64,000 nt of DNA, from positions 1 to 64,000 of the IMG/VR virus record IMGVR_UViG_3300000062_000001; one strand, written 5' to 3'. How positions within the stretch are numbered: position 1 is the stretch's first letter; each line of letters begins with the position of its first letter. Source of the DNA: a virus. This document shows positions 35,287-64,000 of the stretch, one piece after another. The notes under the pieces were generated by a model. It was not told the DNA's origin. It did not search any database and was given only the letters and a program-made list of their open reading frames with translations. The position numbers and the translations under genes were made by a program.

Positions 35287-35320
35287 AATATGATGTTTTT
35301 AATTATTTAATTATTTAAAG

Positions 35321-43805: not shown

Positions 43806-43851
43806 ATATAAAACTTTTTATAATATATATATATTAAAATAGTTTAAATAG

Positions 43852-44719: not shown

Positions 44720-44966
44720 TACTAAAAAGGAATTTAGTAAAGGATTAACTGTATTCTTAATTGCTTTTGGTATAGCATGTATAGTTGCTAGTTATGTATT
44801 AGCTTTTATGAATAATACTTCAGTTAATGAGGGTGTAACTATAGCTGTAATCAGTCAGATATTAGTGACACAAGTGTCCTATTTTACTTATCAATATAAG
44901 TTAAAGGATTCAAGGAATAGGAATGGTGTAGATGAATATGGTGTACCATATGATACAGGTAGTTAA
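44712..44966 (+). CDS. small two-helix membrane protein
   Basis: 84-aa ORF with two hydrophobic helices. Confidence 0.5.
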   Translation: MSNTKKEFSKGLTVFLIAFGIACIVASYVLAFMNNTSVNEGVTIAVISQILVTQVSYFTYQYKLKDSRNRNGVDEYGVPYDTGS

Positions 44967-45057
44967 AATAATTTATAGTATTTAACATTATTTAACTAAA
45001 AATATTTGGTAGATATAAAAATTATATTTACTTTTGTATCAAATAAAAATTAAAAGT

Positions 45058-45258
45058 ATGAGTAGAATTAAGAATTGGTTTAAAGAAGAATTGGGGTTAA
45101 AGATTATAGTGGTGTTAAGTGCAATTGGTTTAGTAACTTTGATTACTTTGTTTGTTACTTCTGATACTAATGATAATACTAAGAAAACTAGTATAGAGGT
45201 TGTAGAGACAGTTGAGGTAACAGAAACAGTTGCTGTTGATAGTTTGATTGTGAATTAA
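45058..45258 (+). CDS. small membrane-anchored protein
   Basis: ATG at 45058, in frame with the track ORF that starts at TTG 45034. One TM helix. Confidence 0.45.
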   Translation: MSRIKNWFKEELGLKIIVVLSAIGLVTLITLFVTSDTNDNTKKTSIEVVETVEVTETVAVDSLIVN

Positions 45259-45304
45259 AATTATTTGTTATAAGGACTGGGGGATACCTGGTCCTTTAAA
45301 TTAT

Positions 45305-45375
45305 GGGTTTGTGTTGTAAGAGTAGCAAATTAGTCTTCAAAACTAAGAGTCAGGGAGCGTAGCCTTGCAAACCCG
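45305..45375 (+). tRNA. opal suppressor tRNA, anticodon UCA (reads UGA; Trp identity inferred)
   Basis: 71-nt cloverleaf. Acceptor GGGUUUG/CAAACCC, D-stem UUGU/GCAA, anticodon stem UUAGU/ACUAA, loop CU-UCA-AA (anticodon 45337-45339), 4-nt variable loop, T-stem CAGGG/CCUUG, discriminator G. The T-loop AGCGUAG is non-canonical. Confidence 0.75.
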
Positions 45376-45400
45376 CAGTAATTAATTAATAATTAATAAG

Positions 45401-46000
45401 TTGAAAAATAATGCTATTTGGAGAGAACAGATTTTAGAGTTAAGGAATCAAGGTAAATCCTATAGGATGATCACTAAGATTCTTAAATGTTCATCATCTA
45501 CAGTTGCTTATAACTGTAATAAAGAGGTTGAAGAGAAAGTCAAGAGTAGAATGGCTTATAGAAGGGGTGATAACAAATTGACTTGGAAACTAAAACTACA
45601 AAAGCAAGTAAGTAGTTTTAATTATAGAAAGGCTGGGAAAGGACACGGGGAATATAACAAGGATTGGAATAAAAAATTAAGGACATCATATTCTACATTT
45701 ATGAATAGGGGAAGTAAAAATACTAGTAAGGTTTCATACAAAGCAGTTATAGAAAAATTTGGTTTAAGGACCAGATGTTATTTAACAGGTAAGAAAATTG
45801 ATTTAACTAAGGATGATTATTCTTTTGATCATATAGTTCCTGTAGCTAAAGGTGGAGAAAATACATTGGATAACTTAGGTATTACTATACCTATAGTTAA
45901 TAGATCTAAGACAGATTTAACTAAAGATGAATATATAGAGTTGTGTAAAAAAATATTAAAGTATAATGGATATTCAGTTACAAAGAGAAAGAATAGTTAA
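45401..46000 (+). CDS. HNH endonuclease with N-terminal HTH
   Basis: FDHIVPVAKGGENTLDNLGITIPIVNRSK HNH core. TTG start, immediately downstream of the suppressor tRNA. Confidence 0.7.
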   Translation: MKNNAIWREQILELRNQGKSYRMITKILKCSSSTVAYNCNKEVEEKVKSRMAYRRGDNKLTWKLKLQKQVSSFNYRKAGKGHGEYNKDWNKKLRTSYSTFMNRGSKNTSKVSYKAVIEKFGLRTRCYLTGKKIDLTKDDYSFDHIVPVAKGGENTLDNLGITIPIVNRSKTDLTKDEYIELCKKILKYNGYSVTKRKNS

Positions 46001-46253
46001 TGCAGTTAAAGGAGGATACAACTTTAAGGCTATAAAGTTAAGATGTGGTAATCCTTCAGGAAAAGTTATAGCAGAAATTATTAAGGAAGTAGATCCTTAT
46101 ATGTATAGTATATTAAATGATACAGTTGCTCTTAAAAGGTATAGGGATAAATTATATGAGAAGTATTTAGAATCAGAATATAATATATCCACATATAAAA
46201 GTGAAACTACAGGATTAACCTATCGTGTTAAGAAAGACCCAATTTATGATTAA
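45966..46253 (+). CDS. hypothetical protein
   Basis: 95-aa ORF. Confidence 0.5.
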   Translation: MDIQLQRERIVNAVKGGYNFKAIKLRCGNPSGKVIAEIIKEVDPYMYSILNDTVALKRYRDKLYEKYLESEYNISTYKSETTGLTYRVKKDPIYD

Positions 46254-46255
46254 AA

Positions 46256-46585
46256 GTGGTAATGAAGGAGTATAAAATAAACTGGTATAAAGTAAGACAT
46301 ATAAACAATGAATATGGTTGTTATATCTTAGCTGAAGGAGTAAGGGACGCTAAAAGAAGATTTAAAGACAATGAATTGAACAATTTTCCTACAATAAGTG
46401 GATTAAAATATGATAGAATAGAGGAATATTGGAATAAGGAATATTTAGCAGCTTTTAATGAGTATTATAAAGAAGATAATATACTAGTAACAATTTGGGA
46501 TGAATTAACTCTTGAAGATGAAAGAAGGGCTATAAATATGTGGAAACAAGAACTTAGGTATAGATATATAAAAGAAAGAGAATAG
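46256..46585 (+). CDS. hypothetical protein
   Basis: 109-aa ORF. The likely ATG is at 46262. Confidence 0.5.
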   Translation: MVMKEYKINWYKVRHINNEYGCYILAEGVRDAKRRFKDNELNNFPTISGLKYDRIEEYWNKEYLAAFNEYYKEDNILVTIWDELTLEDERRAINMWKQELRYRYIKERE

Positions 46586-46587
46586 TT

Positions 46588-46869
46588 ATGAAGGAAAGAA
46601 TTTATGTTGTATGGCATATTAATAATGGAAAACATTACAATAAAACTTATAAAGAAGCTGAATGGAATGGTTGTGCTTACTGAGTTACAGCTTCTAATAG
46701 GGGAATAGCTAAAGATAGAGCAATACAACATTTCTTTATAGATAACTGTCCATTAGATTATATCAATACTTTTTCTAATATGACCGTGGAGGAATTTTTT
46801 GATAAGAAAAATTTAAAAGTGTCTTATATAAAAAAATATGATTATTTAAATTATGGATTAGATATTTAA
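46588..46869 (+). CDS. hypothetical protein, first gene containing an in-frame TGA
   Basis: ATG 46588, TGA 46681-46683 in frame, TAA 46867-46869. Reads ...EAEWNGCAY-W-VTASNRGIAKDR... Confidence 0.5.
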
Positions 46870-46881
46870 AAAAGTTGATAA

Positions 46882-46953
46882 GGTTGTTTAGTATAACGGA
46901 TAATATATTTCTCTTCTAAAGAAATGATGGTGGTTCGATTCCATCAACAACTA
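46882..46953 (+). tRNA. tRNA-Arg (anticodon UCU)
   Basis: 72-nt cloverleaf. Acceptor GGUUGUU/AACAACU, anticodon stem UUUCU/AGAAA, loop CU-UCU-AA, T-arm GGUGG-UUCGAUU-CCAUC. Confidence 0.8.
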
Positions 46954-46968
46954 CAAAATAAATTAATT

Positions 46969-47295
46969 ATGAGAATAATAGAAAGAAATGGGTTCCCAAT
47001 ACCTAAGGGGTATATAGGTATAACATTATGGCCATTTGGGATATATGTGATACCTAATATAAAGAATAGTTATACTGTGAATCATGAAAAGATTCACTGG
47101 GCACAGCAGAAGGAATTACCTGTGTTATTTTATGTACTGTATGGATTATTTTATATAGTTAACTTATGTAGATACAAGTTTGATACAAAGAAAGCTTATT
47201 ACGCAATTCCTTTTGAGATAGAAGCATATATTCAAGAAGATAATACAGAGTATTTACAAGAAAGATATGATTATGCATGGCTTAAATATATATAA
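46969..47295 (+). CDS. small HExxH motif protein (putative zinc metallopeptidase-like)
   Basis: NHEKIHWAQQKE contains HExxH. Start moved to ATG 46969 because the track start at 46924 lies inside the tRNA. Confidence 0.4.
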   Translation: MRIIERNGFPIPKGYIGITLWPFGIYVIPNIKNSYTVNHEKIHWAQQKELPVLFYVLYGLFYIVNLCRYKFDTKKAYYAIPFEIEAYIQEDNTEYLQERYDYAWLKYI

Positions 47296-47300
47296 TAAGT

Positions 47301-47585
47301 ATGGACAGAATAAATATTAGTGACTTAACTTCAGAAAGATATTTAACTTGGTGTAAGAAATATAAGAAGGAGTTGTTAAATGAAGATGGTTTTAAGAGGA
47401 AATTATTTCATAAGTTACACACTTCTGGTAATGGATATAAATTGATAGTATTTATTATAATAAAAGGTGTTCAAGTTCCTCTTCTAGAGATTATTGGTGG
47501 GGATGTAAATGTGTTAGAAGTATTTGATTATTTAGAAAATCATAGCTTAATAGAATTGTTTAAAAATTATAATAGGGAGAAATAA
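47301..47585 (+). CDS. hypothetical protein
   Basis: 94-aa ORF. Confidence 0.5.
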   Translation: MDRINISDLTSERYLTWCKKYKKELLNEDGFKRKLFHKLHTSGNGYKLIVFIIIKGVQVPLLEIIGGDVNVLEVFDYLENHSLIELFKNYNREK

Positions 47586-47586
47586 T

Positions 47587-47952
47587 ATGGATAAATATAA
47601 ATTGTGTGAAGAATATCAAGATGCTTCTATAGACAGTGAATATAATAATATACCTACTTACTGATGTAACTTTTGTAAGTCTTTAGCAATAGGATATTTT
47701 AGTAGTTCAATTGCTGGGGCCCCTACAAATTATTGTATGCACTGTGGGAGTACAGATGTTATTAAGGGGGATATATTTGAATGGGTTAAAATAACTAAAC
47801 CAAAGAAGAGAATATTTAAAAATTTAGTAGAGTACGAAGAATACAAAGCTAGAGTAACAAAGCAAAGAAATTACTTGGCTAAACGTCAGAGTGAAGCTAT
47901 AAGTAAAGAGATTAAAGAAGAGTTAGAATCTTTATATGTTTGAAAAGTATAA
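47587..47952 (+). CDS. zinc-ribbon protein, 121 aa with 2 in-frame TGA
   Basis: ATG 47587, with TGA at 47662 and 47941 in frame. W-CNFC...CMHCG cysteine pairs. Track ORF 47737..47943 is an internal piece. Confidence 0.5.
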
Positions 47953-47983
47953 TAAATAGAAGTTAAATTAAAATTAAATTAGA

Positions 47984-48322
47984 ATGGAAGAAAAAGAGAT
48001 GAAAGGAACAGAGGCTAAAATTAAACAGATGAATACTGTTCCACAAAGTCAACAGAAGTTAACTTATGAACAACTTACAGAGGTAGCTAATCAAGCACAT
48101 CAACAGGCAGAGATGTGGCAGAAAAGGGCTTATGAAGCTGCTTCAAAAAACAGTAGATTGGATATATTGTTTGGTGCATTGGACATGGCTCTTAAATATG
48201 AACAGGCAGGCCTGCATCCTTTTATTAGTATTAATAAGATGGCATCAGAATTAGAGGATATTTTATATCCTTCCAAAGAGATGGGAGAAGAGGAACCACA
48301 ACCTGAACAATCTGGAGAATAA
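47984..48322 (+). CDS. hypothetical protein
   Basis: 112-aa ORF. Confidence 0.5.
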   Translation: MEEKEMKGTEAKIKQMNTVPQSQQKLTYEQLTEVANQAHQQAEMWQKRAYEAASKNSRLDILFGALDMALKYEQAGLHPFISINKMASELEDILYPSKEMGEEEPQPEQSGE

Positions 48323-48327
48323 TAATT

Positions 48328-48714
48328 ATGGCAAAAGGTAATTCAGTTATTATTATTGATGCTAATAAACTGGACTTTTACAAAAACTTTCTTGATTTTC
48401 TCAGACCTATAAGTCCTATAAACAAGTTAAGGAATAAACAGTTATTAATATTAGCTGCTCTTCTTTATAAGAGGAATGATATCTCCAGTAAAGTGGTAGA
48501 TGCTGCTTTGATACCTAAGATATTATTCTCTACAGATGTAAGGGACTCTATAATTAAAACATGTAGCATATCTTTAATGAATTATTATGGGGTTATAGCA
48601 GTATTTAAAAAGCTTGGTATTATTGTTAATGGGGATATAAGTAAGAAAGTTATTCCAGAATTAGAGAATGATAAATTTACTTTAGTAATAGCTTTTAATA
48701 TTAAGGATGAATAA
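48328..48714 (+). CDS. hypothetical protein
   Basis: 128-aa ORF. Confidence 0.5.
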   Translation: MAKGNSVIIIDANKLDFYKNFLDFLRPISPINKLRNKQLLILAALLYKRNDISSKVVDAALIPKILFSTDVRDSIIKTCSISLMNYYGVIAVFKKLGIIVNGDISKKVIPELENDKFTLVIAFNIKDE

Positions 48715-48958
48715 TCTTGAAAAAGTATTTTCAGATGTGGCAGATAAACATAATACTTCTACAGATGTTGTTGAGGGGATTTATAATTCAATGTGAGCAT
48801 TTATGCGTAAAACTATAAAGGAATTACCTGATTTAAAAGGTGTATCAGAGGATGATATAAGTGACTTAAAAACGAATTTTTATATACCTAATTTGGGTAG
48901 GTTTTTTATAGACACTGAAAGAGTTAAGAAGAAAAGAAAATTTAAAAAATTACTATAA
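48707..48958 (+). CDS. hypothetical protein, 83 aa with 1 in-frame TGA
   Basis: ATG 48707, TGA 48794-48796 in frame, TAA 48956-48958 overlapping the next ATG. Confidence 0.45.
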
Positions 48959-49371
48959 TGATTATATTAAAAGATATTAAACCTTTAGGGGATAGTGTTA
49001 TCACTACAGGTAATAGATATAAGGAAGAGTTCACTTCAGGGGGCCTTTTGGATCCTTCAAAGTCGGGACAATTCAAACCCTACCAAACAGTGCTATATAT
49101 TTCAGAACAAGCTTCAATAAGAGGTATAAATGTTGGGGACATTGTAGCAGTAAACTTGTTTAATTACGCAAGACCTGTACAGAGGAAAGATTCATTGAAA
49201 AATGATGTAGATGAATATTATAATGCTTCTTATGCATATCATATTCCTACTATGGATATTAATAGTAAAGAATGTCTTGATTTGAGAATTTGTGATATTA
49301 AGTGTGTTATACTTGATATGACAGATACTGAGGACACTAAAACTAAAAAGAGTAAATTAATATTGAACTAA
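48958..49371 (+). CDS. possible GroES/gp31-like co-chaperonin
   Basis: DIKPLGDSVITT...TSGGLLDPSKSG...NVGDIVAV follows the Cpn10 pattern (KPLGDRV...GG...GD.V). Confidence 0.4.
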   Translation: MIILKDIKPLGDSVITTGNRYKEEFTSGGLLDPSKSGQFKPYQTVLYISEQASIRGINVGDIVAVNLFNYARPVQRKDSLKNDVDEYYNASYAYHIPTMDINSKECLDLRICDIKCVILDMTDTEDTKTKKSKLILN

Positions 49372-49420
49372 TTAATAGCCTTGCTTTAATTAATAGGGCA
49401 GGGCTTTTTACTTTAAAACT

Positions 49421-49663
49421 GTGGAAAACATAATAGAAGGAGTAGAAGATATATATTTGATGCCCCCTAAGTTTTATTTAGAGGTAGAAGATGTGATAGA
49501 TATTGAAAATATAATGCTTAGGGCTGCATTAAGACATGTAAAAGGTTTACCAGATACATTAGAGAGTGATAGAATAGAAGCAGAAATAGCAGAGTATAAA
49601 AAGGCTGTGATGCAAAATGAAACTTACATAAATGAATTTTTAGATGAAATTAATAGAATTTAA
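49421..49663 (+). CDS. hypothetical protein
   Basis: 80-aa acidic ORF with a GTG start. Confidence 0.45.
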   Translation: MENIIEGVEDIYLMPPKFYLEVEDVIDIENIMLRAALRHVKGLPDTLESDRIEAEIAEYKKAVMQNETYINEFLDEINRI

Positions 49664-50171
49664 AAACAATGAACTGACTATTGCAGATGAAGCTTATCAT
49701 ATCAGAGTATTCAAGACTCTTTGGGACAGAGATATTACCAAGGATAAGTCTAGAGCTTTGAGTACTTTTGGGTTTATGTACTTCTATCATCATCCCAATA
49801 GTGATTATAATTATATTATTGATGATGATGAAAAGATACAAGCCATACAAGAAGGGCTTGGAATTGATAACTTAAAATTTTTACAGGATAAAAATTATTT
49901 AAAAGCTGTAGAAGTTTACAAGAAAATGGTGGTTACTACTTCTAGTAAAATACTTGAAACTAACAGAAATAGGATGGAAAAACTTGGTAAATTTCTTGAC
50001 GATTTAGTAATAACAGATGAGAATATGAATAAATACACTAAAGCTATATCAGATATTAATAAATTAGGTGTAGAAATAGCTATGGCTGAGAAAGAGATAT
50101 TCAGGGATATAGAGGAACAGACTGCTAAGGTAAGAGGCAAAGTTGAATTAACAGTAGGAGATATGCTCTAA
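49644..50171 (+). CDS. hypothetical protein
   Basis: 175-aa ORF upstream of terL. A small-terminase role is possible by position only. Confidence 0.5.
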   Translation: MKLIEFKNNELTIADEAYHIRVFKTLWDRDITKDKSRALSTFGFMYFYHHPNSDYNYIIDDDEKIQAIQEGLGIDNLKFLQDKNYLKAVEVYKKMVVTTSSKILETNRNRMEKLGKFLDDLVITDENMNKYTKAISDINKLGVEIAMAEKEIFRDIEEQTAKVRGKVELTVGDML

Positions 50172-50428
50172 TGGAATTAGAACAATTAATAGATAGAATA
50201 AACTTAAAGATATCTGGATTGAATACATTACAGATTGAAAAATCTTTAGATGGTACCTGTATTTATTTGTGTAAAGTTAGATATCCCACAGAAGAAAGAA
50301 TATTACTAGGTGTATTTAGGTATGAAAATAAGGAAATATCTGTAGTAGATTATCTATTACAGATATTAATGACGCAGGTTTATAAACAATGGGAAAATTA
50401 TGACTTGGTTAAAGAGAATTATGAATAG
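50171..50428 (+). CDS. hypothetical protein
   Basis: 85-aa ORF. Confidence 0.5.
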   Translation: MELEQLIDRINLKISGLNTLQIEKSLDGTCIYLCKVRYPTEERILLGVFRYENKEISVVDYLLQILMTQVYKQWENYDLVKENYE

Positions 50429-50543
50429 TAACATGGGTATCTGAGGTTTAAGATGTCCTACATGTAATAGTACAGAAGTTACTGAATTAGAGCACAACAC
50501 TTATATATGTTTATGTTGTAATAAGATATGGAAGAAATTATAA
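50421..50543 (+). CDS. 40-aa zinc-ribbon peptide with 1 in-frame TGA
   Basis: MNSNMGI-W-GLRCPTCNSTEVTELEHNTYICLCCNKIWKKL, with two CxxC pairs. Confidence 0.35.
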
Positions 50544-52861
50544 AAACAAATAGTTATCAAACTAAGATAACTCAAGAATTGTTAGATAGTTTAGGAAAGG
50601 AGGTTCAAGAGGATCTCCTTTTTTATATTAATAATGTACCTTTTATACAGAGATTAATCTCTCCTTCTAGGAAGTATGCTAAAGACTTACAGAGAGATGA
50701 ACGGGGAAGAGTTTTTGTAGACATATCTAATCCTCACATATTAGAGAATATGGATTACTTTAGGGAATCTGCTATTCATTTTCAGAAATATGGGTGTTAT
50801 ACAAAACTTAAAATTAATACCAGTCCTAAATCTGAATATATGAAATGATTTAATAGAGAGTTAGACAGATGTTGAAATGGTATGATTAGAGAAAGTGATG
50901 GGGAATGAATACCTGGAGATTTATATTGGTATCTTAATTATACTATAATGAAACAAACTATAGATAAGAAATTAAAAGATGGTAGAATTATAGAGACTAG
51001 AACTGTGGATATTCCTAAAATGTGAGAAGGTGTTTATTGAAGATTTCATTATTTATATCAATGTAGATCTAGTAAAGCACATGGAGCAGAGGTGTCAAGT
51101 CGTGGAAAATCAAAAAGTTATGTTTTAGCTGCCATGTTATCAAAAATGATTTCTTTGGGTATAGATAATACTTTGTCTAAAAATAGAGCATCTTTAGCTG
51201 TAGCATCTAATAAGGATTATCTAACAAAAAGAGGTCAAGGAGTTCTTGAAAAATTTGAAGATAATATGGATTTTATTACTAAAAATACTCAATTTCCTTC
51301 TAATTTTTCTCAGGCCTCTTTATCTACTATGCAGTGAACTTGTGGTTGAGAGGATCAAGAAAAAATTAAAAGGGGCCCTCAAAATACATTAGCTGGTATA
51401 GCTATAGCTGATGATCCAGATAAATCTCGTGGGTCAAGGGTGGATTTACTTGTAGGGGATGAATTTGGGTGCTTTCCAAACTTTAGTGATTGGTGGGGGG
51501 CATCTATGCCTTCTGTACAAGACGGGGAAAAAATATTTGGATTATTATATGTTACGGGTACAGGAGGAACTGAGGGCACAGATTTTAGTGGTGCATTATC
51601 AATGATTTATTCTCCAGCTTCAAGAAATGTTTTGGGGGTTCCAAATGTGTATGATAGTGGTAGTAAGGGATTAAAAAACACAGTATTCTTTTTTCCTGCT
51701 TATGTTAACTACAATCCTTATTATGATGAAAACGGTGTGTCAGATGTAATAGGGGCTATGGTCAGTGAATTAAAACAACGCTATATTATTAAATATGAAT
51801 CTAATGATCCACTAGAACTTACTAAAAGGAAGGCTGAATTTGCATTTACTTTAACAGATGCAATAATGCGTAGAGATGGGACTATCTATCCAGTTGCTGA
51901 TTTAAATGATAGAATATTTGAACTTGATAATAATCCTGATATACTTAATAGAATGTATCAGGGTAGGCTTAATATGAATGATGGTGCAGTTTCATTTGTG
52001 CCAGATTTAGATTGTAAAGCTATACAAGAATTTCCACACACTAATAATAAAATGGAAGGTTCTGTATATATTAAAAATATGCCCGAAAAGAATAGTGATG
52101 GTAAAGTTCCTTGAGGTAGATATATTGCTGGGTTAGATCCTATAGAAATTGATGGAGAAGCACAAAGTCTATCTTTATTATCCGTATATGTGTTAGATTT
52201 ATGAACAGATGACATTGTAGCAGAATATACAGGAAGATATTTACATACAGAAGATGCCTTTGAAATAGCTAGAAGATTGCTTTTATTTTATAATGCAGAG
52301 TGTTTATATGAAAATAATAAGAAGGGATTTTATTCATATATGTTAAAATATAATTCATTAATGTTGTTGTCTACTACTCTGGATTATTTAAAAGATAAGA
52401 ATTTAGCTAAAGAAAGTTATGGAAACTCTTCATATGGATTTACTGCTACCGCTCCTATAAAGAGTTTAATCAGAAGACATGTTAGGGATTATTTACTAAA
52501 ACCCCATGAATTGTTTGTACAGACTACTGAGGGTGAAGAGACACAAGTTACTGTAAGTAACATTAAAAGAATTTGTTTTAGAGCGTTATTAAAGGAATTG
52601 AGTATGTGAAATGCTGATGGCAACTTTGATAGACATGATGCTTTGGGTGCTTTAATGTTGCTAAGAGAAGCTAAATTAATTTATTACCAAGGCGGAACAG
52701 GGCAGGATAGAACCAATGACAGGGAGTATTTAGGTAATGATAATTTCTTTACAGTTAACTATGATGAAAGAATTAAAAGAGAAACTGATGTTGTAAGGAT
52801 AATGAGGGAGATTGATAAGAAAAACGGTTGAAATACTTATTTAAATACTTCTGAAGTATAA
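50528..52861 (+). CDS. terL: terminase large subunit, 777 aa with 11 in-frame TGA
   Basis: Five track ORFs (50528, 51092, 51440, 52277, 52643) share one frame and are separated only by TGA. Walker A SSRGKSKS, Walker B VDLLVGDEFG, nuclease motif YIAGLDPIE. Confidence 0.8.
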
Positions 52862-52941
52862 ATGTTTCAATTTCTTTAATAGATATACAAGTAATTAAAT
52901 TTATAATTAAATTTGTATTTTAAAATAGTAATAGATAAATT

Positions 52942-55338
52942 ATGGAATATTTTAATGGTTTACCACCTCAAAAACTCTCCTATAGGAAAAAGAATAGGGA
53001 GTGGAGGGTTAAATGTGTGGATTGAGCAGACAGGAATTATCTGTTACATAATTCATACACTAGAAAGTCTTATAAGAATAAGGTTATAAATTATAATCTT
53101 ATAAATGGCATCCTTGACATGGAAGATGTTATGGCTGTCCTTAACCCTAATAATATAGTATCTTCATTATCTCCTGAAAGAATTCAGCATTACCCTATTA
53201 TGAACTCTAAACTAAATATTCTTAGGGGAGAAGAGTGGAATAGAAGATTTGATTACAGAGTAACTGTAACAAATCCTAATGCTATTACAGAGATACAAAG
53301 GGAAAAAATGGATTCTTTAATACAGGATTTACAATCTTGAATTACAGCAGATGCTCAAACTGAGGAAGATGCTCAGAGAGAGCTTGAGAAAATATCAGAT
53401 TATTATAAATTTACTTGAAAAGATATAAGGGAAGTAAGAGCTAGTTACTTCTTAAGACATTACAGCCGTGAATTAGATTTTGATTTAAAGTTTAATCATG
53501 GTTTTATGGATGCTATGATTTGTGGAGAAGAGATATATCAATGTGATATACAGGGTGGAGAACCTACTTTTGAAAAGATAAATCCTAAAAAGATTAAAGT
53601 TATTAGAAGTGGATTCAGTAATAAGATAGAAGATGCAGATATGGTTCTTTTGTGGGACTATTGATCTCCTGGTAAAATACAAGATGCGTTTTATGATGTG
53701 CTATCTCCTAAAGATGTGAAAGAGATAGAAGAAATGGCTGCTAATTTTGTATCTGATTCCATGGAAAACTTTGATGAAACAAGGAATTTTACTCTTATAG
53801 ATCCAGCAGGTGAATCTTATGGTGAGGGGGCTATTTTAGAGGGGAGATTAGCAATGTTTGGCGCCCCAATGTATGGTTTTAGTAACTATGTGGATAATCT
53901 TGGCAACATTAGAATTTTAAGATTATATTGAAAATCCTATAGAAGAATAAAGAAGGTTAAATCCTATCATCCTGAAACTGGGGAAGAAGAGTATAATTTC
54001 TACCCTGAAGATTATATTTTGAATAAAGATATGGGTGAAGAGGAGACTATATTATATATTAATGAAGCTTGGGAAGGTACTAAAATTGGTAAGGATAAGT
54101 ATGTAAATATGAGGCCCAGAATAGTTCAGTATAATAGATTGTCAAGTCCTTCGAGATGTCATTTTGGTATTGTAGGATCAGTTTATAATTTAAATGAATC
54201 TACCCCATACTCTTTAGTTGATACAATGAAATGGTTTAATTATTTATATGATGTTATTAGTGATAACTTACTGAAGTTAATCTCTACTAACTGAGGTAAA
54301 ATAATTAAGATGGATTTAGCAACTGTACCACAAGGTTGAGAAGTTGATAAATGAATGTATTATGCCAAGATAAATCATTTAATGGTTACTGACAGTTTCA
54401 AGGAAGGTAATAAAGGGGCTGCTATGGGAAAATTGGCAGGACTTATGAATAACCAATCCTCTGGAGTAGTAGATGCTGACCAAGGTAATTCTATTCAATA
54501 TTATATGAATCTTCTGGAATGAATTAAGCAGTCCATGTCTGAGATGGTTGGTATAACCAGACAAAGAGAGGGGGCTATATCTAACAGAGAAACTGTTGGA
54601 GGAGTTGAAAGGTCTGTATTACAATCCAGTCATATTACTGAGTATTTGTTCATGACTCATGAAAATGTTAAGAAGAGAGCTCTTGAATGTTTCATAGAAA
54701 CGGCTAAAGCTGCCATGAAAGGTAAGTCTTTAAAGTTTCAATATATTCTATCAGATGGTACTGCAAAAATTGTAGATATAGACGGGGATGAATTTTGTGA
54801 GAATGATTATGGTATTACAGTAGAAAATTCTAAATTTACTCAGGACCTTATAACAAAATTGGAAGGCCTTGCTCAAGCAATGGTACAAAATCAAATGATG
54901 AGTGCCAGTAGTTTAATCAAGATCTTTTCTGATTCTTCTACAGCTGAAATTATGAGAACTATTCAAGAGGATGAAAGGAATTTACAAGAAAGACAATCTG
55001 AACAACAAGAAGCTCAGAACCAGTTAATGCAACAAGAAATGGAAATGAAATCTGCTGTTGAAAATAGAAGACTTGATGTTCAGGAACAAGCTAATATAAG
55101 AGATAATGAAACTAAATTAATTATAGCTGGTTTATCTCAACAAAGTAATGAAGAGGGTTTAACAGAAGAACAACCCTTTGATTTACAAAAGAAGCAAGAC
55201 TTAGAAGAGAAAATTAGACAATTTGATGCTAAATTAAGTTTAGATAGGGAGAAATTTAATTTTGATAAAGACACAACTAAAGAAGAGTTGAAGTTAAAAA
55301 ATAAACAGATTAATAAACAATCTAACATGAAAAAATAA
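52942..55338 (+). CDS. portal protein, 798 aa with 9 in-frame TGA
   Basis: ATG 52942. Track ORFs 53119, 53698, 54019 and 54535 are in the same frame, joined through TGA only. The size, the position after terL and the C-terminal Q/E-rich coiled coil fit a portal. Confidence 0.7.
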
Positions 55339-56423
55339 TGGCAAGTAATAAATTAGAATTTGTACGTTCACATACAGCCCCTCCTACAGTTGAGGGCGCT
55401 GGCTGGGTGGATTTAAATTTCACTCCTCCAGTTGTGAAACAATGGACAGCCCAGGGCTGGGTTCCTCTAGGAAGTGGTGGTGTTCCAGAGCCCTGTCGTG
55501 TTCCTCCTGGAACTGCTGATGGGCAAGTACCTGTTTGGGATCAAACAACGCAAAAATATGTACCTGAAATTCTTTCAATACCAGGTAGTGAAATCTTTCC
55601 TCCTGGAAGTATATATAATTATTCTTCAAATTTAGCTTGATTACCTTCTAATATGGATGTGTCGGGAATGTCAGCTATGGATGTACTTACCCAAATTCTT
55701 TTTGGTTTTAATAATCCTGCTTTCACTTCTTTTAGTCTCTCTGGTAATACTACTTTAGAAGTAGGAGCAAGTATCCCAGCAACTAAAACTTTTACTTGGG
55801 CTGCTACTTATATGGCTAATATTAAACCTAACAGTACAATAATTAGAAATATAACTGATGCTGTCACTTTATTTTCAAATATTACTATAGGTAATCCTTC
55901 TGGTACAGGAACCTCAGGATCTTATTCTGGATCTTCTGCTGTACTTACAAAAAACAGTCCTACATCTGTAGTATTTAGAATAAGCCAAGAAAACACAAGA
56001 GATGTGGTATTTACAAGGGATTATTCAGTAAATTGGTTGTGGCCTATTTATTGAGGCGCTTGAGAGCAATATAATAATGCATGAAGCGCTGGTGGTGGTA
56101 CAGCGTCAAGTATTGTACCTACTTCTTCTGATATTATAGATGATAATAAGGTTTTATCAAATGTTGTCAATGGTCAAGTTTTTAATATGCCTGATGTTAC
56201 AGGTGGGGCTATACGATTTGTAGCTATTCCAGAGGAGCTCCCACAACTTAGAATGATGGTAGATAATAATAACACTATGCCTATAGTATTGAATGGGGGC
56301 TATGACCCAACTTCCCCCATGACTGTACCAATAACTAATAGTTTTGGACTTTCTCATAATTACAAAATTTATTGGACAGCAAATGTTTTAAATGGGTCTG
56401 TTCCTATGAGATTGGTAGTTTAA
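55338..56423 (+). CDS. tail/structural protein, 361 aa with 4 in-frame TGA
   Basis: Track ORFs 55338, 55653 and 56187 share one frame. GC-richer Pro/Gly-rich N-terminus. Shares the DVLT.IL.G...FTW domain with the next gene. Confidence 0.6.
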
Positions 56424-56458
56424 TTTATAATATTTCTTTAACTTTTAATTAAATTTTT

Positions 56459-57865
56459 ATGGCAATTGATTTTAATCAAACAGTAAAATTAACTGGGGGT
56501 ATTTCCCCCACAAGTCCACTTGATACTTATGCTTCACACTTTGAAGATTTTGGTTATGGTGGTTACAGAACAGTAGCAGATATAGCTGAAAGAGACGCTA
56601 TAACTCCAGCTAGAAGAAAAGGTGGCATGTTAGTTAATGTGCTTAGTGATGGTAAAAAATATGAACTTGATGGGGATTTAACTACTTGAACTGAGTTAAT
56701 TCTAAGTGGAAATACAGATTTTAAAACTGAATTAGATTTAACATATGCAAACGCCGCTGCTGGGGTTTATAATATAAGTCAACTTCTTCTTAATGGGGTC
56801 GTTTATTACCCTGCAACGTTCACTACAGCAGAATGGACTGAGGTAAGAAATAAATTAAGAGGTCAAATGATCTCAATGCGCTTTCTTGATTCTGATCCGA
56901 CAGCAGAGAACCCTATTCGTATTAGTCTTGGGTCCTCGGATGTAGCTGTGACACTTCTTAATAATATTCCACTATTGACTAGTGATATTCTTGTTAGTCC
57001 AGTTGTATTTTATAGTTGTCATATTCAGACATCTTATGCTAGTTTTATAATGTTAAAAACAGCTCCTATTACAGGTGGTGGGGATATATTTCCATCAACA
57101 CCTGCAACTACTAATTTTACAGTAGGAGATTTTCCAGCTGGTAGTACAATAGGAGATAGGTCTTTAATAGATGTGTTAACAGACATATTAGTTGGTTATC
57201 CTCAACCCACCCTGACAAGTCTTAACTTCACAGGTAGAGTTGCTACTATTGAAGTAGGTTCAGTTATTGCTGCTAATAGAAACTTTACATGGTCTATGGC
57301 CAATGCAGATAATATGGATTCTGCGAGCATAAGTATTTCTGGTCCTGGTGGAGTAGTTCAGGGAACGGGTATTACTGGAGTAAATGGAGCTAACACTTAC
57401 CTCTCCACAACTCCTGCAATCAATACTACAGATACTCCTGCAACTTATTCATTTGGTATCTCAGGTACAAATACCAAAGGTGCCACTATAACAGGTTCGG
57501 GCGTAAATGTAGCAACACAATATAGATTTGGATATGCAGCTTTGGCTACTGATGGTGGTTTAGTTACAGCAACTGATATTAATGATTTATTATCTGCAAC
57601 AGGAACTCTTAGAGCTACTCCTGTAACTAATATAAGTTTCCCAGCAAATCCAGTCAGTCCTTATAAATACTTTGTGGCTCCTGCATCTTTTCCATTGACC
57701 ACAGATAACTTTAAAGAGGGCAGTGCTTCAGGCTTCCCATATGCTATGGTTAAAGTAGCTGATAATGTCCCTGTAGTTAGAAATGCAAACGCTACAGTGA
57801 ATTACCAAGTTTGAAGATCTGCTAATGCAGTGAATGGGGCGACAGTGCTCTATGTAGTAGCTTAA
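56459..57865 (+). CDS. tail fibre protein, 468 aa with 2 in-frame TGA
   Basis: Track ORFs 56459 and 56867 share one frame. The N-terminal module VKLTGGISPT...GYGGYRTVADIAERDAITPARRKGGML is paralogous to the N-terminus of 57922. Confidence 0.6.
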
Positions 57866-57921
57866 TAATAATCTATAATAAAGGGGATTAATTTCCCCTT
57901 TATTTCAATTAAAATAATAAT

Positions 57922-58578
57922 ATGGCAGATATAATAGGAACAGTAAAATTAACAGCTCAAATATCTCCTACTGACACTTTAGACAGTTTTCCTACCCATT
58001 CAGAAATTTGAGGGCAGGGTGGATATGGTTCTGTTACTGATATAGCTGAATTACATAATATAACTCCTCAACGTAGGAAAGAGGGGATGTTACGATATGT
58101 CCTTACTGAAGATACAACCTATCAGTTAAAGGGGGGCATAGACAACATAAACTGGGTGGAAGCCTCTTCTACAGGAGGTGGTGGTGTAGATCCTGTACCA
58201 ATAGGAACATTTATGTTCGGTATATTGGATATAAGTATGGCTCTGCCAGCTGGACTAATTAGGTGTGATGATGGTACAGTTTATAATAAAATAGATTTTC
58301 CTGAATTAGTTACTTTAATAGAGAATGAATCTTTCTTTCATAGTATAGATGCAAACACATTTGAATTTGTGAATATTCTAGATGAAGAGACTTGAATTAA
58401 GGCTAAAAGAATAAAAATTGGTGGTTCTGGTAGTGATATTGATGTAGTACAATCTACAGGACAATCCACAGAAGATGTGATGTCTCAAAAGGCTGTTACT
58501 GATGAATTAGATAAAGTAGAGCAATTAATAGGTGATATAAATACTGTGTTGGATTATGTTAATGGTTTAATAATATAG
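57922..58578 (+). CDS. tail fibre protein paralogue, 218 aa with 2 in-frame TGA
   Basis: ATG 57922. N-terminal module VKLTAQISPT...W-GQGGYGSVTDIAELHNITPQRRKEGML, with a C-terminal coiled-coil-like end. Confidence 0.6.
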
Positions 58579-58580
58579 AT

Positions 58581-59339
58581 ATGGCAACAGCGGATAAATT
58601 AGAATACTTAATAGTTGGTGTTGAGGATGCATGATTAGCTTGTCAGGAATTAGGAGCCACTTTACCTCCAATTAATCCTTTAACTGGTGGCAGAGATATA
58701 GACCTCTTGGGGGCTACTATAAGAAGCACTAATACAAGACCAGATTGATTACCCCCTGGCTATATGCAATTATTGTATTTAGAAAGTACAAGATCACAAC
58801 ATGTGGACACTGATATATTAAGTACTAATGGAGTGCATCAAATAGTATTAGATGTATTAATACCTTCTACAGTAACATCGAATACATCGATAGTTGGTTC
58901 AAGGGGTGATTCTCCTACAAGAAGATTTGGTAATTTATATATGACAGGAAGTCCAATACATATAGGTGCTTACGTTGGTCAATCAAGTAATATTATGGGT
59001 TATACTCCAACTATAGATGAAAGATTTACACTTGATTATATAGTAGATGAGCCTAATCAACATTTTGAAATGTCTATAAATGGTATATCAATTGGTAACG
59101 ATACATATAATGGTAGTGCTATTACAGGTTATCCACTGTTTATATTTGGCGCGAATTTAAATGGTAATGTTACTGAAAGAAGTGCTACCAGATTATATAG
59201 TTGTAAAATGTATATAGATGGTATATTGGTAAGAGATTTATGACCAGTATTAAATGATCAGAATGAGCCTTGTTTGTATGATAAAATAAGTTTAAGGACA
59301 TTTCTTCCCATTGGATCTGGTATAAAATTTGGATTTTAA
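58581..59339 (+). CDS. structural (tail-associated) protein, 252 aa with 3 in-frame TGA
   Basis: ATG 58581, with track ORF 58764..59243 as the internal piece. Confidence 0.55.
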
Positions 59340-59359
59340 CTATAATACAATAATATAAT

Positions 59360-61819
59360 ATGGCAAATAAAATAACATATAAAAGTAGAGTAGAGGACTA
59401 TCTTACATTCTCAGGTTTTCCATTAGTTGGGACCAAGGGAATTATATACATAGACAAAGAGCATACTAAAAGTTATTTGTGAAATGGAACAGAATATGTA
59501 AGTGATAGTGGATCAGGAGAAGACCTTGCAGACAGAGTAGAGGCTCTTGAGGAAGTAACTAAGATCCCTATGAGACAGGGAATAGAATATTCAGGGACTT
59601 ATAGTATATATGTACAACTTTATGATGAAGTCAATCCAGATGATCCAGGGGATATTTGAACCCCTGAAGGAAATGATAGCAACCCCGACCCAACACAATA
59701 TGATACTGCATTAAGAACTCTTTATGGAGTAGTTGAATTTTTAAGAAAAAGGGATTTCTTTGGTGCTGCTGTACGAGTAAATTTTTCTGAAGGAGATTAT
59801 ACTAATACTTTTGTAACAGGTACTTCACCTACTTGGTCTTTTGATACAAGTGCGCTTGCTGGCTCTAATATAACGACATTAAATCTACTACCACAGGTTA
59901 TATCTTGAACTAGTGCTGAAAGTACTATTATACAAGGGGCTAGGTCTACATTACAGTCTTTAACCTTGTCTTACAGATACTTGACTGTAAAAAGAGCAAC
60001 TACTACAGGAAATGTGGATGTGTCAAATGGAAGTAGGCTAACATTATCAAATTGTATTATATTATCTGGACCAAACCTTAATATAAGTGGAAGTAGTTCA
60101 TCAATAGAAGTAAATGGATGTAGGTTTTATAGTACTAACCCAATTGTGGTTAATGGTGGAACACTTCTTTTTGTAGGTGCGGCTTCTCAACTTTTAGCTA
60201 CCCCTTATACTCTAGCATCTGGAAGGGCTTTTATAGAATTAACAGATGGCGTCTTGGATATAGGTAATATTGGTTTTAATCCTACTAGTATTTCAAGAGT
60301 TACAGGAAATAAAGTAAACGCACTTGGTAATTCTAGTATTTATGCAACAGGGGATCCTACAGATTTGAATTTACTTCTTAGTAAAATACCTGGAAGTACA
60401 TTAGGTAATTTAGGTTTTGGAAGTTCATTTTTTAATCCCACTGTTATTAATGGATTTTCACAAGATGATACAGACCCTGCGAATCCTTTATTGTTATGAA
60501 ACGGATTACCTGTTACTGGAAATATAGGCTCAGCAGAAATAGCAACAACAACAACAACAGGAATAGTTAAAATAGGAAATGGTTTAGATATAAATATAGA
60601 AGGAAATCTTAGTTCTAAATGATGTCAAGATGAAGAACTTTTATTCATTTCGCAGGATTCAAGAACTCGTAATACATCTGCTTTATATAATAAAAATATA
60701 TACATTCCAATATCTAATACTACTACTCTTGAGATATTTGATACTGTTACAAATACTACAAGAGAGAAAGTGTTATTACAAAACCCTTCTTCTTTAGAAA
60801 CTTGTGTTATTGGGAATGGTAATTTATATATACCAAATCAAATTTCTTCCCCTAGGTCAATTGAGATATTCAATTTAACACAAGAAACATCTCGGGTAGT
60901 TAATGTTCCCACAATGCCTATTAATTTAAAGTGTTCATTAATATATGATGATAATTTATATCTTTTAGGAGATCGAACTCATTTAACAATATTTAATCTT
61001 ACTTCTGAAACTAGTAGAGATGTAACTTATTCAGCTGGTGGACATCGCTCTTTCTGTAAAATTATTGGAACTAAATTATATGCATTTGAAACAGTTAACC
61101 CAAGTGTGGATATTTTTGATCTTGTAACAGAGACAACAGAAACTGTAGCATTGCAGGGATCGGGCACTATTAAAACAGGAGATGCTTATGAGGATAAGTT
61201 TTATATTGTTCGGAACAATAGTACTCAAATAGAAATATTTGATATAAATACTAAAACTTCTAGACTTTTACCAATACTAGTAAGTAGTCAATATAATTCT
61301 GTAGTAGTATACAAAGGTAAATTATATGTGTACCCTGTATTTGTAGTAAATGGGTTACAAATAATTGATTTACATTCTGAGACTAAGAAGACAATACCAA
61401 TAACAGGAACTTTAACAGCTAATACAGTACAAGCATTAAATAATAAGATATACTCTTTTGGGACAAATGTGAATGTGTACACATTAGAAGGAGCCTTTTT
61501 TACAGAGGACACTAATTCAGTTAAATCTACAGGAAATGGAATGCCTGGTAGTCCTTTAAAGATTGAGTTGGCCCCTCATGTATTTAAGCCTATGATTGTT
61601 GATTTGACAAGTCAATTAGATGGTGTGTTGGAAACTTTTGTAATACCTTCTTTTATTACTTCTGATATGTATAAAGCTTTGTGATATCATGGTAGTAGAT
61701 TAAAAGAGAATGGTCAGTATACTATAAATTATATTAATCATGAATTAACTACTTTAATGCCTAATGCACCCGTGGCATCTGCTGGTGCAGGGCTTGAACT
61801 AGAAGTTTGAACATGGTAA
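59360..61819 (+). CDS. large tail fibre/receptor-binding protein, 819 aa with 7 in-frame TGA
   Basis: Track ORFs 59966 and 60770 share the frame of ATG 59360. Beta-helix-like region, a TTTTTGIVKIGNGL motif, then six ~47-aa repeats of the type IEIFD..T.TSR.V. Confidence 0.65.
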
Positions 61820-61837
61820 TCTACTAAATCATATAAT

Positions 61838-62200
61838 ATGTTAGAATCATTATTAACATCCTTGGTTCCTGCTGTAATATTATCTGTAGTCACTTTTATG
61901 ACCACTAAAAGAAAATATCAAGCTGAATCTAAGGGACTAGAAAAAGTAAATGATGATCTATCTCAGGAAATATACAGAAAGCTTCTTGATGACGTAAATA
62001 ATAGAATTGAGAAGCTTACTACTGAGATGAGATTAAATGAACAACATTATTTGGCCAGAGAGGTTGAATATAAAAACACTATTAAAGCAGCGAATGAAAA
62101 AATCAATGCTTTAGAGAGTAAAATAAACAGACTTACAAGACACGTATGTTTAGTATCCACATGTGCAGATAGAGTATATTTTGATGAAATGTCTGATTAG
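61838..62200 (+). CDS. membrane-anchored coiled-coil protein (spanin- or holin-like, by position)
   Basis: N-terminal TM helix LVPAVILSVVTFM followed by a coiled coil. First gene of the putative lysis cassette. Confidence 0.45.
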   Translation: MLESLLTSLVPAVILSVVTFMTTKRKYQAESKGLEKVNDDLSQEIYRKLLDDVNNRIEKLTTEMRLNEQHYLAREVEYKNTIKAANEKINALESKINRLTRHVCLVSTCADRVYFDEMSD

Positions 62201-62202
62201 TT

Positions 62203-62823
62203 ATGAAAAGTATAGGAACATATATCATTCTATTTGCTACAGTGTGAGCAATAGGATGTACAGCTTACTTTAGAAATAAAGTTAAAAAGAACACTGCTCA
62301 AATAGAAATTTTAGTAAATAATAATAAGGCTTATGAGCTGGAAAATTTGAATTTATCATCAGAAAAAGGGATTTACAAAATGACTATTGATGAACTTAGT
62401 CAGAGTAGAGATAGTATTGTTAATCTCCTTGACCAAACAAGAAAAGAACTTGGTATCAAAAACAATGAACTTAACTTAGCTCTATCTTTTAAAACTGTTA
62501 TAAAAGAAACTAGAGTTGATACTGTGACTTTTATGGTAAGAGACTCTATTTCTACATGTGATTTTGATCAATTAATAGTATTTAATGATTACACAAGATT
62601 AAATATATCTTTAAGAAATAATATAGTTAAAGCTGATTTGGACTTGTCTGACAGATATCAATTGTTTGACTACTCTACTAGAGAGTGAAAGGAGCCTAAA
62701 TTTATGAAAAGACTTATTAAATTTAAATGGGGTAAATATACTATAGATAAAGTTGAGCTTGTTAATGACAACGATCTAAATAAGATATTAGATTTAAAAG
62801 TAATTAAAATAATAGATAAATAG
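62203..62823 (+). CDS. putative lipoprotein (outer spanin-like, by position), 206 aa with 2 in-frame TGA
   Basis: Signal peptide IILFATV-W-AIGC has a lipobox, and one TGA lies inside the signal peptide. Track ORF 62347..62688 is internal. Confidence 0.45.
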
Positions 62824-62824
62824 T

Positions 62825-63238
62825 ATGCAACTTAGTAAGAATTTTTCTTTATCTGAAATGGTTTATTCAGAAGTGGCAAAAAAGAAAGGTATAGATAATA
62901 CTCCTTCTCCACAAATAATTGATAATTTAAAAAAACTTTGTGAAGAATGTTTACAACCAGTAAGAGATAAACTAAAGAAACCTATTACTATTAATAGTGG
63001 TTATAGGTGCTCTGCCCTTAATAAAGCTGTTGGGGGGGCTAGTAGTAGTCAACATGTTTTGGGAGAAGCTGTAGACATTACTGTGGGTACTAAAACTGCG
63101 AATGAAGACTTGTTTACTTTAATAGTAAAAGATAAATCTATAACATTTGATCAACTTATAGATGAGAGTAATTATAGTTGATTGCATTTATCATACAAAA
63201 ACAAGAATAATAGACGACAAGTATTACATTTAAAATAA
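62825..63238 (+). CDS. peptidase M15 family endolysin, 137 aa with 1 in-frame TGA
   Basis: SGYRCSALNKAVGGASSSQHVLGEAVDI (the SGYR...GG..SQH..G.A.D zinc-peptidase signature). Continues through TGA 63179 to W-LHLSYKNKNNRRQVLHLK. Confidence 0.8.
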
Positions 63239-63350: not shown

Positions 63351-64000
63351 ATGGATGGAATAACACTAGATAATATTACAGAGGAATCTGCGGATTCCCT
63401 GGATTTATTTTCTGGTAAATTAGGTGATTTGAAATTACTGAGTTTATCAGAAGAAGATGATGACCTTATAGAAGGTACAATACACACAAATACACAAGAT
63501 AAAGACGAGAGTCAAAAAGATAGCTCTGTTGATGTTGCTAATAAGTCTAAAGATTTGGATGATAAGCAGCAGGAGAAAGTAGATGGAGGAGAAAATCAAG
63601 TAGGGGGTGCTGATTCAAATAATCAAAGCGTTTCTCCCAATCTCTATTCTTCCATTGCTAAAGATTTAATAGAAGAAGGCATCCTTACGCTTGATGATGT
63701 AGAAGTAGATAAAATTGATAGTCCTGATAAGTTAGCTGCTGTGTTTAAACAACAAGTAGAAAACTTATTAGATGATAGGCAAAAGAGAGTTTTAGAGGCT
63801 TTAGATAATAAAGTTCCTGTAGATTTAGTTAAACAATATGAAAATATTATTAGTAATCTTTCTAATATTACAGATGAACAACTTACAGAAGAATCTAATA
63901 TAGCTCTCAGAAAAGATGTTATATACAATGATTTGATTACAAGAGGTTTTTCAGAAGAAAGGGCTAAAAGAGAGATTAAAAAATCTATAGATAGTGGTTC
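63351..64000 (+). CDS. acidic late protein, 3'-truncated by the window edge
   Basis: ATG 63351, open to the window end (216 codons). It is absent from the track because it has no stop. The antisense track ORF 63644..63928 is its shadow. Confidence 0.55.
   Translation, partial: MDGITLDNITEESADSLDLFSGKLGDLKLLSLSEEDDDLIEGTIHTNTQDKDESQKDSSVDVANKSKDLDDKQQEKVDGGENQVGGADSNNQSVSPNLYSSIAKDLIEEGILTLDDVEVDKIDSPDKLAAVFKQQVENLLDDRQKRVLEALDNKVPVDLVKQYENIISNLSNITDEQLTEESNIALRKDVIYNDLITRGFSEERAKREIKKSIDSG

Follow-up and report, generated by a model that had tools for sequence, protein, structure and literature searches.

TGA probably encodes tryptophan in the late genes of a crAss-like phage with a non-canonical tRNA(UCA) gene

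Recoding of stop codons in late genes has been described in crAss-like phages, of which 243 were reported with TAG-to-Gln or TGA-to-Trp reassignment; TGA-to-Trp was found in late genes, and recoding and detectable suppressor tRNAs were imperfectly matched (Yutin et al., 2021; PMC7886860). The principle was generalized to the Lak, crAss-like, Jade, Sapphire, Agate, Topaz, Garnet and Amethyst clades by Borges et al. (bioRxiv 10.1101/2021.08.26.457843), who found suppressors in only 35% of code-4 phages, predicted undetected non-canonical ones and proposed that recoding times the expression of late and lysis genes. Here we analyzed positions 1 to 64,000 of the virus record IMGVR_UViG_3300000062_000001 (64,000 nucleotides, hereafter the window), which belong to a crAss-like phage of 106,308 bp. 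Very probably, TGA encodes tryptophan (Trp) in the late block of this phage by means of a tRNA(UCA), and the replication genes follow the standard code. The phenomenon itself was published in 2021-2022, and the first description of the window, made from its letters alone (the sequence-only reading), rightly called the principle not new; as judged from its sequence, the genome has all the features of this class. Undocumented as far as we found are the non-canonical tRNA(UCA) subfamily and the presence of a transfer-messenger RNA (tmRNA) gene.

The phage resembles the code-4 crAss-like phages of Yutin et al. in belonging to the same phage order, in the in-frame TGA codons of the TerL, portal and major capsid protein (MCP) genes, in their restriction to the late block and in possessing a suppressor tRNA. 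It differs from them in that the suppressor is non-canonical (T loop AGCRTAG, no D-loop GG) and in having the tmRNA gene. Because default ARAGORN and Rfam both miss this tRNA, surveys would count the phage as recoded without a suppressor. With the gut phages of Borges et al. it shares standard-code replication genes, recoded structural and lysis genes, a suppressor tRNA within a standard-code stretch upstream of the recoded genes, and an endolysin whose Trp is encoded by the recoded codon only; here a lipoprotein-like lysis open reading frame (ORF) also has sense TGA. The crAss-like examples analyzed in detail by Borges et al. are TAG-recoded, whereas this phage is TGA-recoded. Their Jade phages carry a "code-change module" of tryptophanyl-tRNA synthetase (TrpRS) and release factor 1 (RF1), neither of which was seen here among the genome ORFs of at least 290 aa. 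The tRNA-Trp(UCA) of Mycoplasma and Spiroplasma likewise reads UGA as Trp through a UCA anticodon, but in those bacteria the reassignment is genome-wide and release factor 2 (RF2) is absent, whereas here it concerns one viral block and the other genes avoid TGA or stop at it.

Sense TGA codons of the plus-strand block

ORFs were called with TAA and TAG as the sole stops, and TGA was counted in frame. On the plus strand, 46588-63238 holds 45 in-frame TGA codons and two ORFs at 1-1926 hold eight more, a total of 53 in the window where the sequence-only reading had counted about 54 by hand. As it had also stated, the ORFs of both regions are broken by TGA only: they contain no in-frame TAA or TAG, codons of which the other two frames hold hundreds each, and all of them end in TAA or TAG. 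They are contiguous and tightly packed, and the earlier TGA counts for TerL (11), portal (9), the 819-aa fibre (7) and the M15 endolysin (1) were reproduced exactly. A comparison of coding density pointed the same way. Under code 11 the ORFs cover 0.63 of 46588-63238, and once TGA counts as a sense codon they cover 0.967; treating TAG in this way as a control gave only 0.667, and the minus-strand block was unchanged (0.862 vs 0.863). The in-frame TGA pattern is thus confirmed as an observation and lies far beyond chance. The plus-strand features are as follows.

43397-46585, plus strand: head of the plus-strand block, small ORFs around the suppressor tRNA, no in-frame TGA (ORF calls)
46588-50428, plus strand: small ORFs upstream of TerL, four TGA (in 46588-46869, 47587-47952 and 48707-48958) (ORF calls)
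46882-46954, plus strand: canonical tRNA-Arg(TCT) (default ARAGORN and Rfam)
50528-52861, plus strand: TerL, 777 aa, 11 sense TGA and three TGG (crAss-like TerL match)
52942-55338, plus strand: portal, 798 aa, nine sense TGA (homology)
55338-61819, plus strand: five virion, tail or fibre-like ORFs (55338-56423, 56459-57865, 57922-58578, 58581-59339 and 59360-61819), 18 sense TGA together (ORF calls, paralogue alignment)
61838-62200, plus strand: membrane/coiled-coil protein of the lysis cassette, no TGA (role from sequence features only)
62203-62823, plus strand: lipoprotein-like protein of the lysis cassette, two TGA and one TGG (role from sequence features only)
62825-63238, plus strand: Peptidase_M15_3 endolysin, one TGA and no TGG (Pfam)
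63351-64000, plus strand: start of an acidic 391-aa ORF extending beyond the window end, no TGA and no TGG (ORF calls)
1-657, plus strand: C-terminal end of a 3,591-aa ORF (genome 96190 to 657), 18 sense TGA (ORF calls, motif)
694-1926, plus strand: last late ORF, 410 aa, five sense TGA and no TGG (ORF calls)

In the whole genome, the late block runs from 46588 round to 1926 and contains 147 sense TGA and 108 TGG codons. The base 3' of the codon is A after 69 of the 147 sense TGA (47%) and after 28 of the 108 TGG (26%; chi-square p = 0.005), possibly a context effect on competition with RF2. No TGA was found in the 648 codons of 43397-46585 on the plus strand, where about five would be expected at the late-block rate, and only four occur in 46588-50428; the start of recoding therefore falls downstream of the tRNA gene rather than at the strand switch. 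Annotation with code 11 misses a third of the late block and breaks TerL, portal, MCP, endolysin and virion RNA polymerase into pieces.

For a clean test of the residue inserted at TGA, the X-masked proteins were compared by tblastn with crAss loci whose TerL has no in-frame TGA. In these standard-code homologues the TGA columns showed the Trp and aromatic preference that the sequence-only reading had anticipated, with W in 84, Y in 31, F in 23, L in 12, V in 12 and G in four of 215 aligned cells, glycine being at background level. Portal columns 330 and 466 had Trp in 14 of 14 homologues and TerL column 166 in five of five. The endolysin TGA aligned with the Trp of a W-(I/V)-H motif in all four homologues, taken from four unrelated phages; these were used in place of a PDB match that did not cover the TGA position. 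An earlier alignment of 92 database TerLs gave Trp at seven of eight conserved-Trp columns, but it is partly circular because at least some database TerLs (P0001, P0003 and P0006 were checked) had already been translated with TGA as W. These three proteins, from loci L035-L038, are code-4 translations.

The Trp content of the late proteins supports the same residue. From TGG alone it is 0.63%, and with TGA as Trp it becomes 1.50% in the window or 1.30% in the whole block; the early block has 1.32%, so that late and early contents agree only if TGA is Trp. Comparison of the two fibre paralogues, which had been offered as a further argument, held in part. The TGA of ...SEI-X-GQGGY does align with the Phe of ...FEDFGYGGY in BLAST, while the pairing of the TGA at 56687 with a TGG lies outside the BLAST alignment and depends on the hand alignment. 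Homologue columns and Trp content agree with a tRNA(UCA) that carries G73, and the assignment of TGA to Trp is supported.

The tRNA(UCA) gene and decoding of UGA

Default ARAGORN and Rfam at its gathering score identified only tRNA-Met(CAT) and tRNA-Arg(TCT), both in the window and in the whole genome. Relaxing Rfam to E<=5 or E<=10 revealed no suppressor tRNA in the window either. At a 90% threshold ARAGORN reported one additional gene, 45305-45376 on the plus strand with anticodon TCA, located in the gap between a 66-aa ORF (45058-45257) and ORF 45467-46000. The first ORF with a TGA follows 1.2 kb downstream of the gene, and TerL follows at 5.2 kb. Simulated 64-kb sequences gave 0.83 calls each at the relaxed threshold, but only 0.02 with anticodon tca. 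Intron mode at -ps85 yielded dozens of obvious false positives and was discarded. The gene is the sole tRNA(UCA) candidate of the 106-kb genome, since tRNA and Rfam scans of the remainder gave no additional match.

45305-45375, plus strand: candidate opal-suppressor tRNA(UCA) (relaxed ARAGORN, covariation)
45005-45036, plus strand: match to the Bacteroidota-type promoter consensus TTTG-N-TAnnTTTG, upstream of the 66-aa ORF (45058-45257) and of the tRNA(UCA) (pattern scan)

In the predicted tRNA the acceptor stem pairs perfectly over 7 bp (GGGTTTG/CAAACCC), the D stem measures 4 bp, and the anticodon stem (5 bp) closes a 7-nt loop CTTCAAA with U33; the T stem has 5 bp including G53:C61, the variable region is 4 nt long, and the discriminator base is G73. 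All TGA-recoded relatives with enough flank (L004, L005, L006, L014, L019, L035/36, L037 and L038) have a tRNA(TCA) 2.9-5.4 kb upstream of TerL. These copies are canonical except that of L004, which displays the unusual T loop of the window. Four of the six canonical copies (not L006 and L038) combine A1:U72 with G73, as tRNA-Trp does.

A pattern search located the unusual T arm in three other lineages, L039, L040 (same contig as L004) and L041/42. The signature GTCTTCAAAAC-N6-9-CAGGGAGCRTAGCCTTG finds the subfamily with T loop AGCRTAG and no D-loop GG in four low-GC phage contigs, namely in the window (45305-45375, plus strand), L004 (4604-4676), L039 (2364-2436, minus strand) and L042 (390-462), and this short signature GTCTTCAAAAC...CAGGGAGCRTAGCCTTG retrieves more subfamily members. 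Default ARAGORN detects one of these four copies, and Rfam reports only L004 (46.6 bits) and not L039 or L042. Among the four copies the acceptor stem has been rewritten by compensatory changes (GGGTTTG, GGGCATG, GGGTTTA and ACCCGCT) and pair 27:43 switches from U:A to C:G; all stems are intact, with no difference in the anticodon loop or the T arm. In the alignment of nine tRNA sequences, 98.4% of the cells were paired and 17 of 21 pairs showed double changes, compared with 35-51% pairing in slid controls. RNAalifold applied to the four non-canonical copies alone recovered the acceptor, anticodon and T arms. We conclude from sequence comparison that 45305-45375 is a conserved non-canonical gene for a putative opal-suppressor tRNA, a covariation-backed case of the detection-evading suppressors predicted by Yutin et al. 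and Borges et al.

G73 and C35 A36 occur in each of the nine tRNA(UCA) genes. A1:U72 is present in five of them, including L041/L042, and L038 has G1:U72. Recognition by TrpRS depends on G73 and C35 A36 and, in many bacteria, on A1:U72; these rules come from E. coli and B. subtilis and may not be those of Bacteroidota. Charging by the host TrpRS is inferred from G73 and C35 A36 and is consistent with the negative search for phage TrpRS and RF1 among ORFs of at least 290 aa.

Several points weigh against a Trp-inserting suppressor that serves the late genes. The D loop AAGAGTA lacks G18G19, and the T loop AGCGTAG lacks T54-Psi55 (no TTC) and retains only C56 and R57 of the conserved tertiary-interaction bases. 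Default ARAGORN misses the window copy, the Rfam tRNA model RF00005 (gathering 29 bits) gave no match to it even at E<=10 on 281 nt, and its minimum-energy structure when folded alone is not a cloverleaf (z = -1.58). The window tRNA has G1:C72, as do L039 and L040/L004, and not the Trp-like A1:U72 of the canonical relatives. At several TGA columns the homologues have Tyr, Phe or variable residues. "Late" and "Trp-charged" are both inferred, the former for structural and lysis genes from gene function and gene order, and the host is taken to use the standard code because the early genes fit it and Crassvirales are known to infect Bacteroidota. Reading TGA as Trp is strongly favoured all the same, yet not proven at every site.

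These irregularities are what an alternative source of decoding would draw on, in which a host suppressor, or near-cognate host tRNA-Trp(CCA) together with a phage factor weakening RF2, reads UGA and the tRNA-like gene is a relic. The gene is indeed non-canonical, is missed by default tools and has no lone cloverleaf fold; moreover, many recoded phages have no detectable suppressor, and host suppressors have been mentioned (PMC7886860; bioRxiv 10.1101/2021.08.26.457843). However, the non-canonical form has been kept in at least four diverged lineages with its stems intact by compensatory changes, and a relic would not be conserved with such changes and an identical anticodon loop and T arm. 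The site is also syntenic with the canonical tRNA(UCA) genes of relatives, and 147 UGA codons in essential genes demand efficient decoding. Decoding without a phage tRNA is therefore regarded as improbable.

The TGA-free plus-strand ORFs around the gene fit a code-change gene that must necessarily be expressed under the standard code. The promoter assignment of 45005-45036 is weak. The pattern TTTG-N18-22-TAnnTTTG occurs nine times in the window on both strands against 3.1 expected, a mild enrichment, with intergenic sites at 45005-45036 (plus strand), 6578-6609 (minus strand) and 29274-29305 (minus strand). A scan for sigma-70 promoters in the window was at background level (34 vs 32.7 expected).

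The replication block and the code of the host

2306-43363, minus strand: replication and nucleotide-metabolism block, standard code, 66 ORFs (ORF calls)
41194-41266, minus strand: canonical tRNA-Met(CAT) (default ARAGORN and Rfam)

The minus-strand block (41 kb) encodes PolA, RNA ligase, Thy1, ribonucleotide reductase, primase, a DnaB-like protein and a SNF2-type helicase. The sequence-only reading had described it as free of in-frame TGA, with Trp encoded by TGG, ORFs of up to 740 aa and five TGA stops, and all of this was confirmed. Its 11,257 codons include no in-frame TGA and 149 TGG, and the longest ORF has 740 aa. The five ORFs of 66 that end in TGA do so at 42046, 22764, 18345, 18112 and 3430. 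Three of these stops are ATGA stop/start overlaps with the next gene (18345-18348, 18112-18115 and 3430-3433, minus strand), and read-through to the following TAA or TAG would add 6, 30, 2, 1 and 6 residues. Because they lack in-frame TGA, the replication genes translate correctly in the standard code of the host. The earlier description of two codes in one genome thus stands as to recoded late genes beside standard-code replication genes, but "code-neutral" is a better description of the early genes than a second code, as TGA is avoided in frame and read-through would add few residues.

The same block speaks against a host that natively uses code 4, such as Mycoplasma or Spiroplasma, in which no code switch would be involved. 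The low G+C content of 29% and the identity of UGA = Trp with the code-4 assignment would suit such a host. A genome adapted to it, however, would use TGA for Trp throughout and never as a stop, in conflict with the absence of TGA beside 149 TGG and with the five ORFs stopping at TGA. Cultured Crassvirales infect Bacteroidota, which use the standard code, and the phage has its own tRNA(UCA). A native code-4 host is accordingly considered very improbable.

Selenocysteine or glycine at TGA is still less credible. ARAGORN labels any tca anticodon "tRNA-SeC", which would suggest the former. Bacterial tRNA-Sec has 8/5 geometry (a 13-bp acceptor-plus-T helix), a 6-bp D stem and a long extra arm. In the phage tRNA, by contrast, the acceptor/T-stem geometry is 7/5, the D stem has 4 bp and the variable region is 4 nt long; nor can all of the 147 sites, aligned as they are to Trp, be selenocysteine sites. 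Glycine is the code-25 assignment of Absconditabacteria/Gracilibacteria phages, and code-25 phages exist (bioRxiv 10.1101/2021.08.26.457843); at the aligned columns its four cells are set against 84 with Trp and 54 with Tyr or Phe. Since the TGA columns are Trp or aromatic and the geometry is not that of tRNA-Sec, both assignments were excluded.

There is next to no chance that the broken ORFs are pseudogenes or assembly or sequencing errors: although the source is a MEGAHIT metagenome contig, random damage is incompatible with only one of the three stop codons ever interrupting, in one block only and at Trp columns, the same pattern recurs in independent assemblies of related phages, and the contig closes to a circle with a clean 141-bp overlap.

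Proposed mechanism, tmRNA and genome context

We propose that the tRNA(UCA), once transcribed, would be charged with Trp by host TrpRS, compete with host RF2 and insert Trp at UGA. As the charged tRNA would be needed at every such codon, the suppressor would have to accumulate before terminase, portal, tail, endolysin and virion RNA polymerase could be completed at full length. This requirement would gate late and lysis functions in time, as hypothesized by Borges et al., and host translation may be harmed as well if host UGA stops are read through, as hypothesized by Yutin et al. The phage would be a clean example in which early genes are readable by a naive host and virion and lysis genes are locked behind a suppressor tRNA, leaving the published picture unchanged.

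Whether the aberrant subfamily (T loop AGCRUAG, no G18G19) runs the code switch as such, perhaps with the tmRNA in the same toolkit, is put forward tentatively, as a rather doubtful extension. The altered tRNA elbow might evade host or rival tRNA nucleases that target the anticodon or elbow, might evade host modification and quality-control enzymes, or might serve recognition by a phage factor. If this were true, surveys giving about two thirds of code-4 phages a "no suppressor" status would systematically overlook a class of non-canonical tRNAs.

35318-35688, minus strand: tmRNA, within the replication block (Rfam RF00023, 57.3 bits vs gathering 47, full length, model 1-374)

The tRNA-like domain of the tmRNA has G3:U70. 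The likely tag frame is GKVINLTPSTQTAYRLAA (...TQTAYRLAA, with a hydrophobic ...LAA end) and is closed by UAG UAG. Default ARAGORN misses the gene, and the relaxed threshold gave tRNA-like domains only, without identifying the tag. SmpB was not found in the ten ORFs neighbouring the tmRNA. An exact-pattern search of IMG/VR with the tmRNA 3' end gave no matches, a related-locus search with the 333-aa ORF flanking the gene found none, and a search with the SNF2 helicase returned one distant locus without a tmRNA. Relaxed ARAGORN -m calls in relatives were only spurious "permuted tmRNA" and were rejected. Huge phages are known to encode tmRNAs (Al-Shayeb et al., 2020; PMC7162821); the present one is likewise a full-length phage-encoded RF00023 member, but resides in a crAss-like genome of only 106 kb. 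No report of a Crassvirales tmRNA was found in the literature searched, and its absence there is not proof of novelty. A link between the tmRNA and UGA suppression is speculation: once UGA stops are suppressed, the tmRNA could rescue ribosomes that read through them to the ends of host and early phage mRNAs, its own tag frame being safely closed by UAG UAG. Through the co-occurrence, a connection between ribosome rescue and the suppression of stop codons can be tested.

The complete genome was reconstructed by exact-protein look-ups as a circle of 106,308 bp whose joins close perfectly, and the window represents 64 kb of it. The source contig is ENA ERZ27245258 k141_1692681 (106,449 bp). The overlap of its ends is typical of k=141 assembly, the window spans the contig ends, and the contig is circular because two coordinate mappings of the window differ by 106,308. 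An exact-pattern search of IMG/VR with the window end gave no matches. The strand switch is located at about 43.4 kb.

The joined TerL matched crAss-like phages only. The best match, and the nearest classified relative by TerL, was the uncultured phage cr108_1 (Steigviridae), with 49% identity over 97%. Pfam searches of the joined proteins gave no match for TerL, portal and two other late proteins, so the identification of TerL and portal relies on tblastn matches and on the annotation of cr108_1. The late block also encodes the crAss-specific Pfam families Crass_capsid, crAss_AuxCP, CrAss_Ring_1 to 4 and crAss_MUZ, as well as cargo proteins. On the homology of TerL, portal and virion proteins and on its DFDxD protein, the phage is assigned to Crassvirales. 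The TerL identity to anything retrieved was at most 62%, which makes the phage a fairly divergent member, and its closest database relatives (TerL 55-62% identical) are likewise TGA-recoded.

The small ORFs of 46588-50428 have homologues that are located upstream of TerL in relatives too. The 3,591-aa ORF contains a single DFDID motif. In crAss-like phages, the RNA polymerase packaged in the virion is marked by a DFDxD signature (bioRxiv 10.1101/2020.03.07.982082); by this motif the ORF is probably such a polymerase. The 819-aa fibre-like protein of 59360-61819, with seven TGA, gave a faint Kelch-type match. The lipoprotein-like ORF at 62203-62823 begins with a signal peptide ending ...AIGC, inside which one of its two TGA codons is located, and its position between the membrane/coiled-coil ORF and the endolysin suggests that it is probably a spanin-type lysis protein. 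As to the endolysin, that of cr4_1 (Suoliviridae; L043, NC_055893.1 11594-12183), an example of a TAG-recoded crAss phage, has three in-frame TAG codons, which correspond to Pro, Lys and Gln of the window protein; one falls on the Q of the SxH zinc-ligand motif.

Mobile elements may have interrupted two genes. The MCP gene (Crass_capsid; genome 64560-69053, L002 4564-9009), which lies beyond the window end, was called as four pieces, and ORFs with HTH_28 and LAGLIDADG_2 matches were found between them; such an arrangement points to insertions of introns or homing endonucleases in addition to TGA recoding. On the minus strand, a LAGLIDADG_2 homing-endonuclease ORF with an N-terminal HTH (28341-29249) is located directly downstream of the DnaB-like ORF (29294-30193). 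The latter matches only the start of the DnaB_C profile, and a mobile intron or intein may have split the helicase gene.

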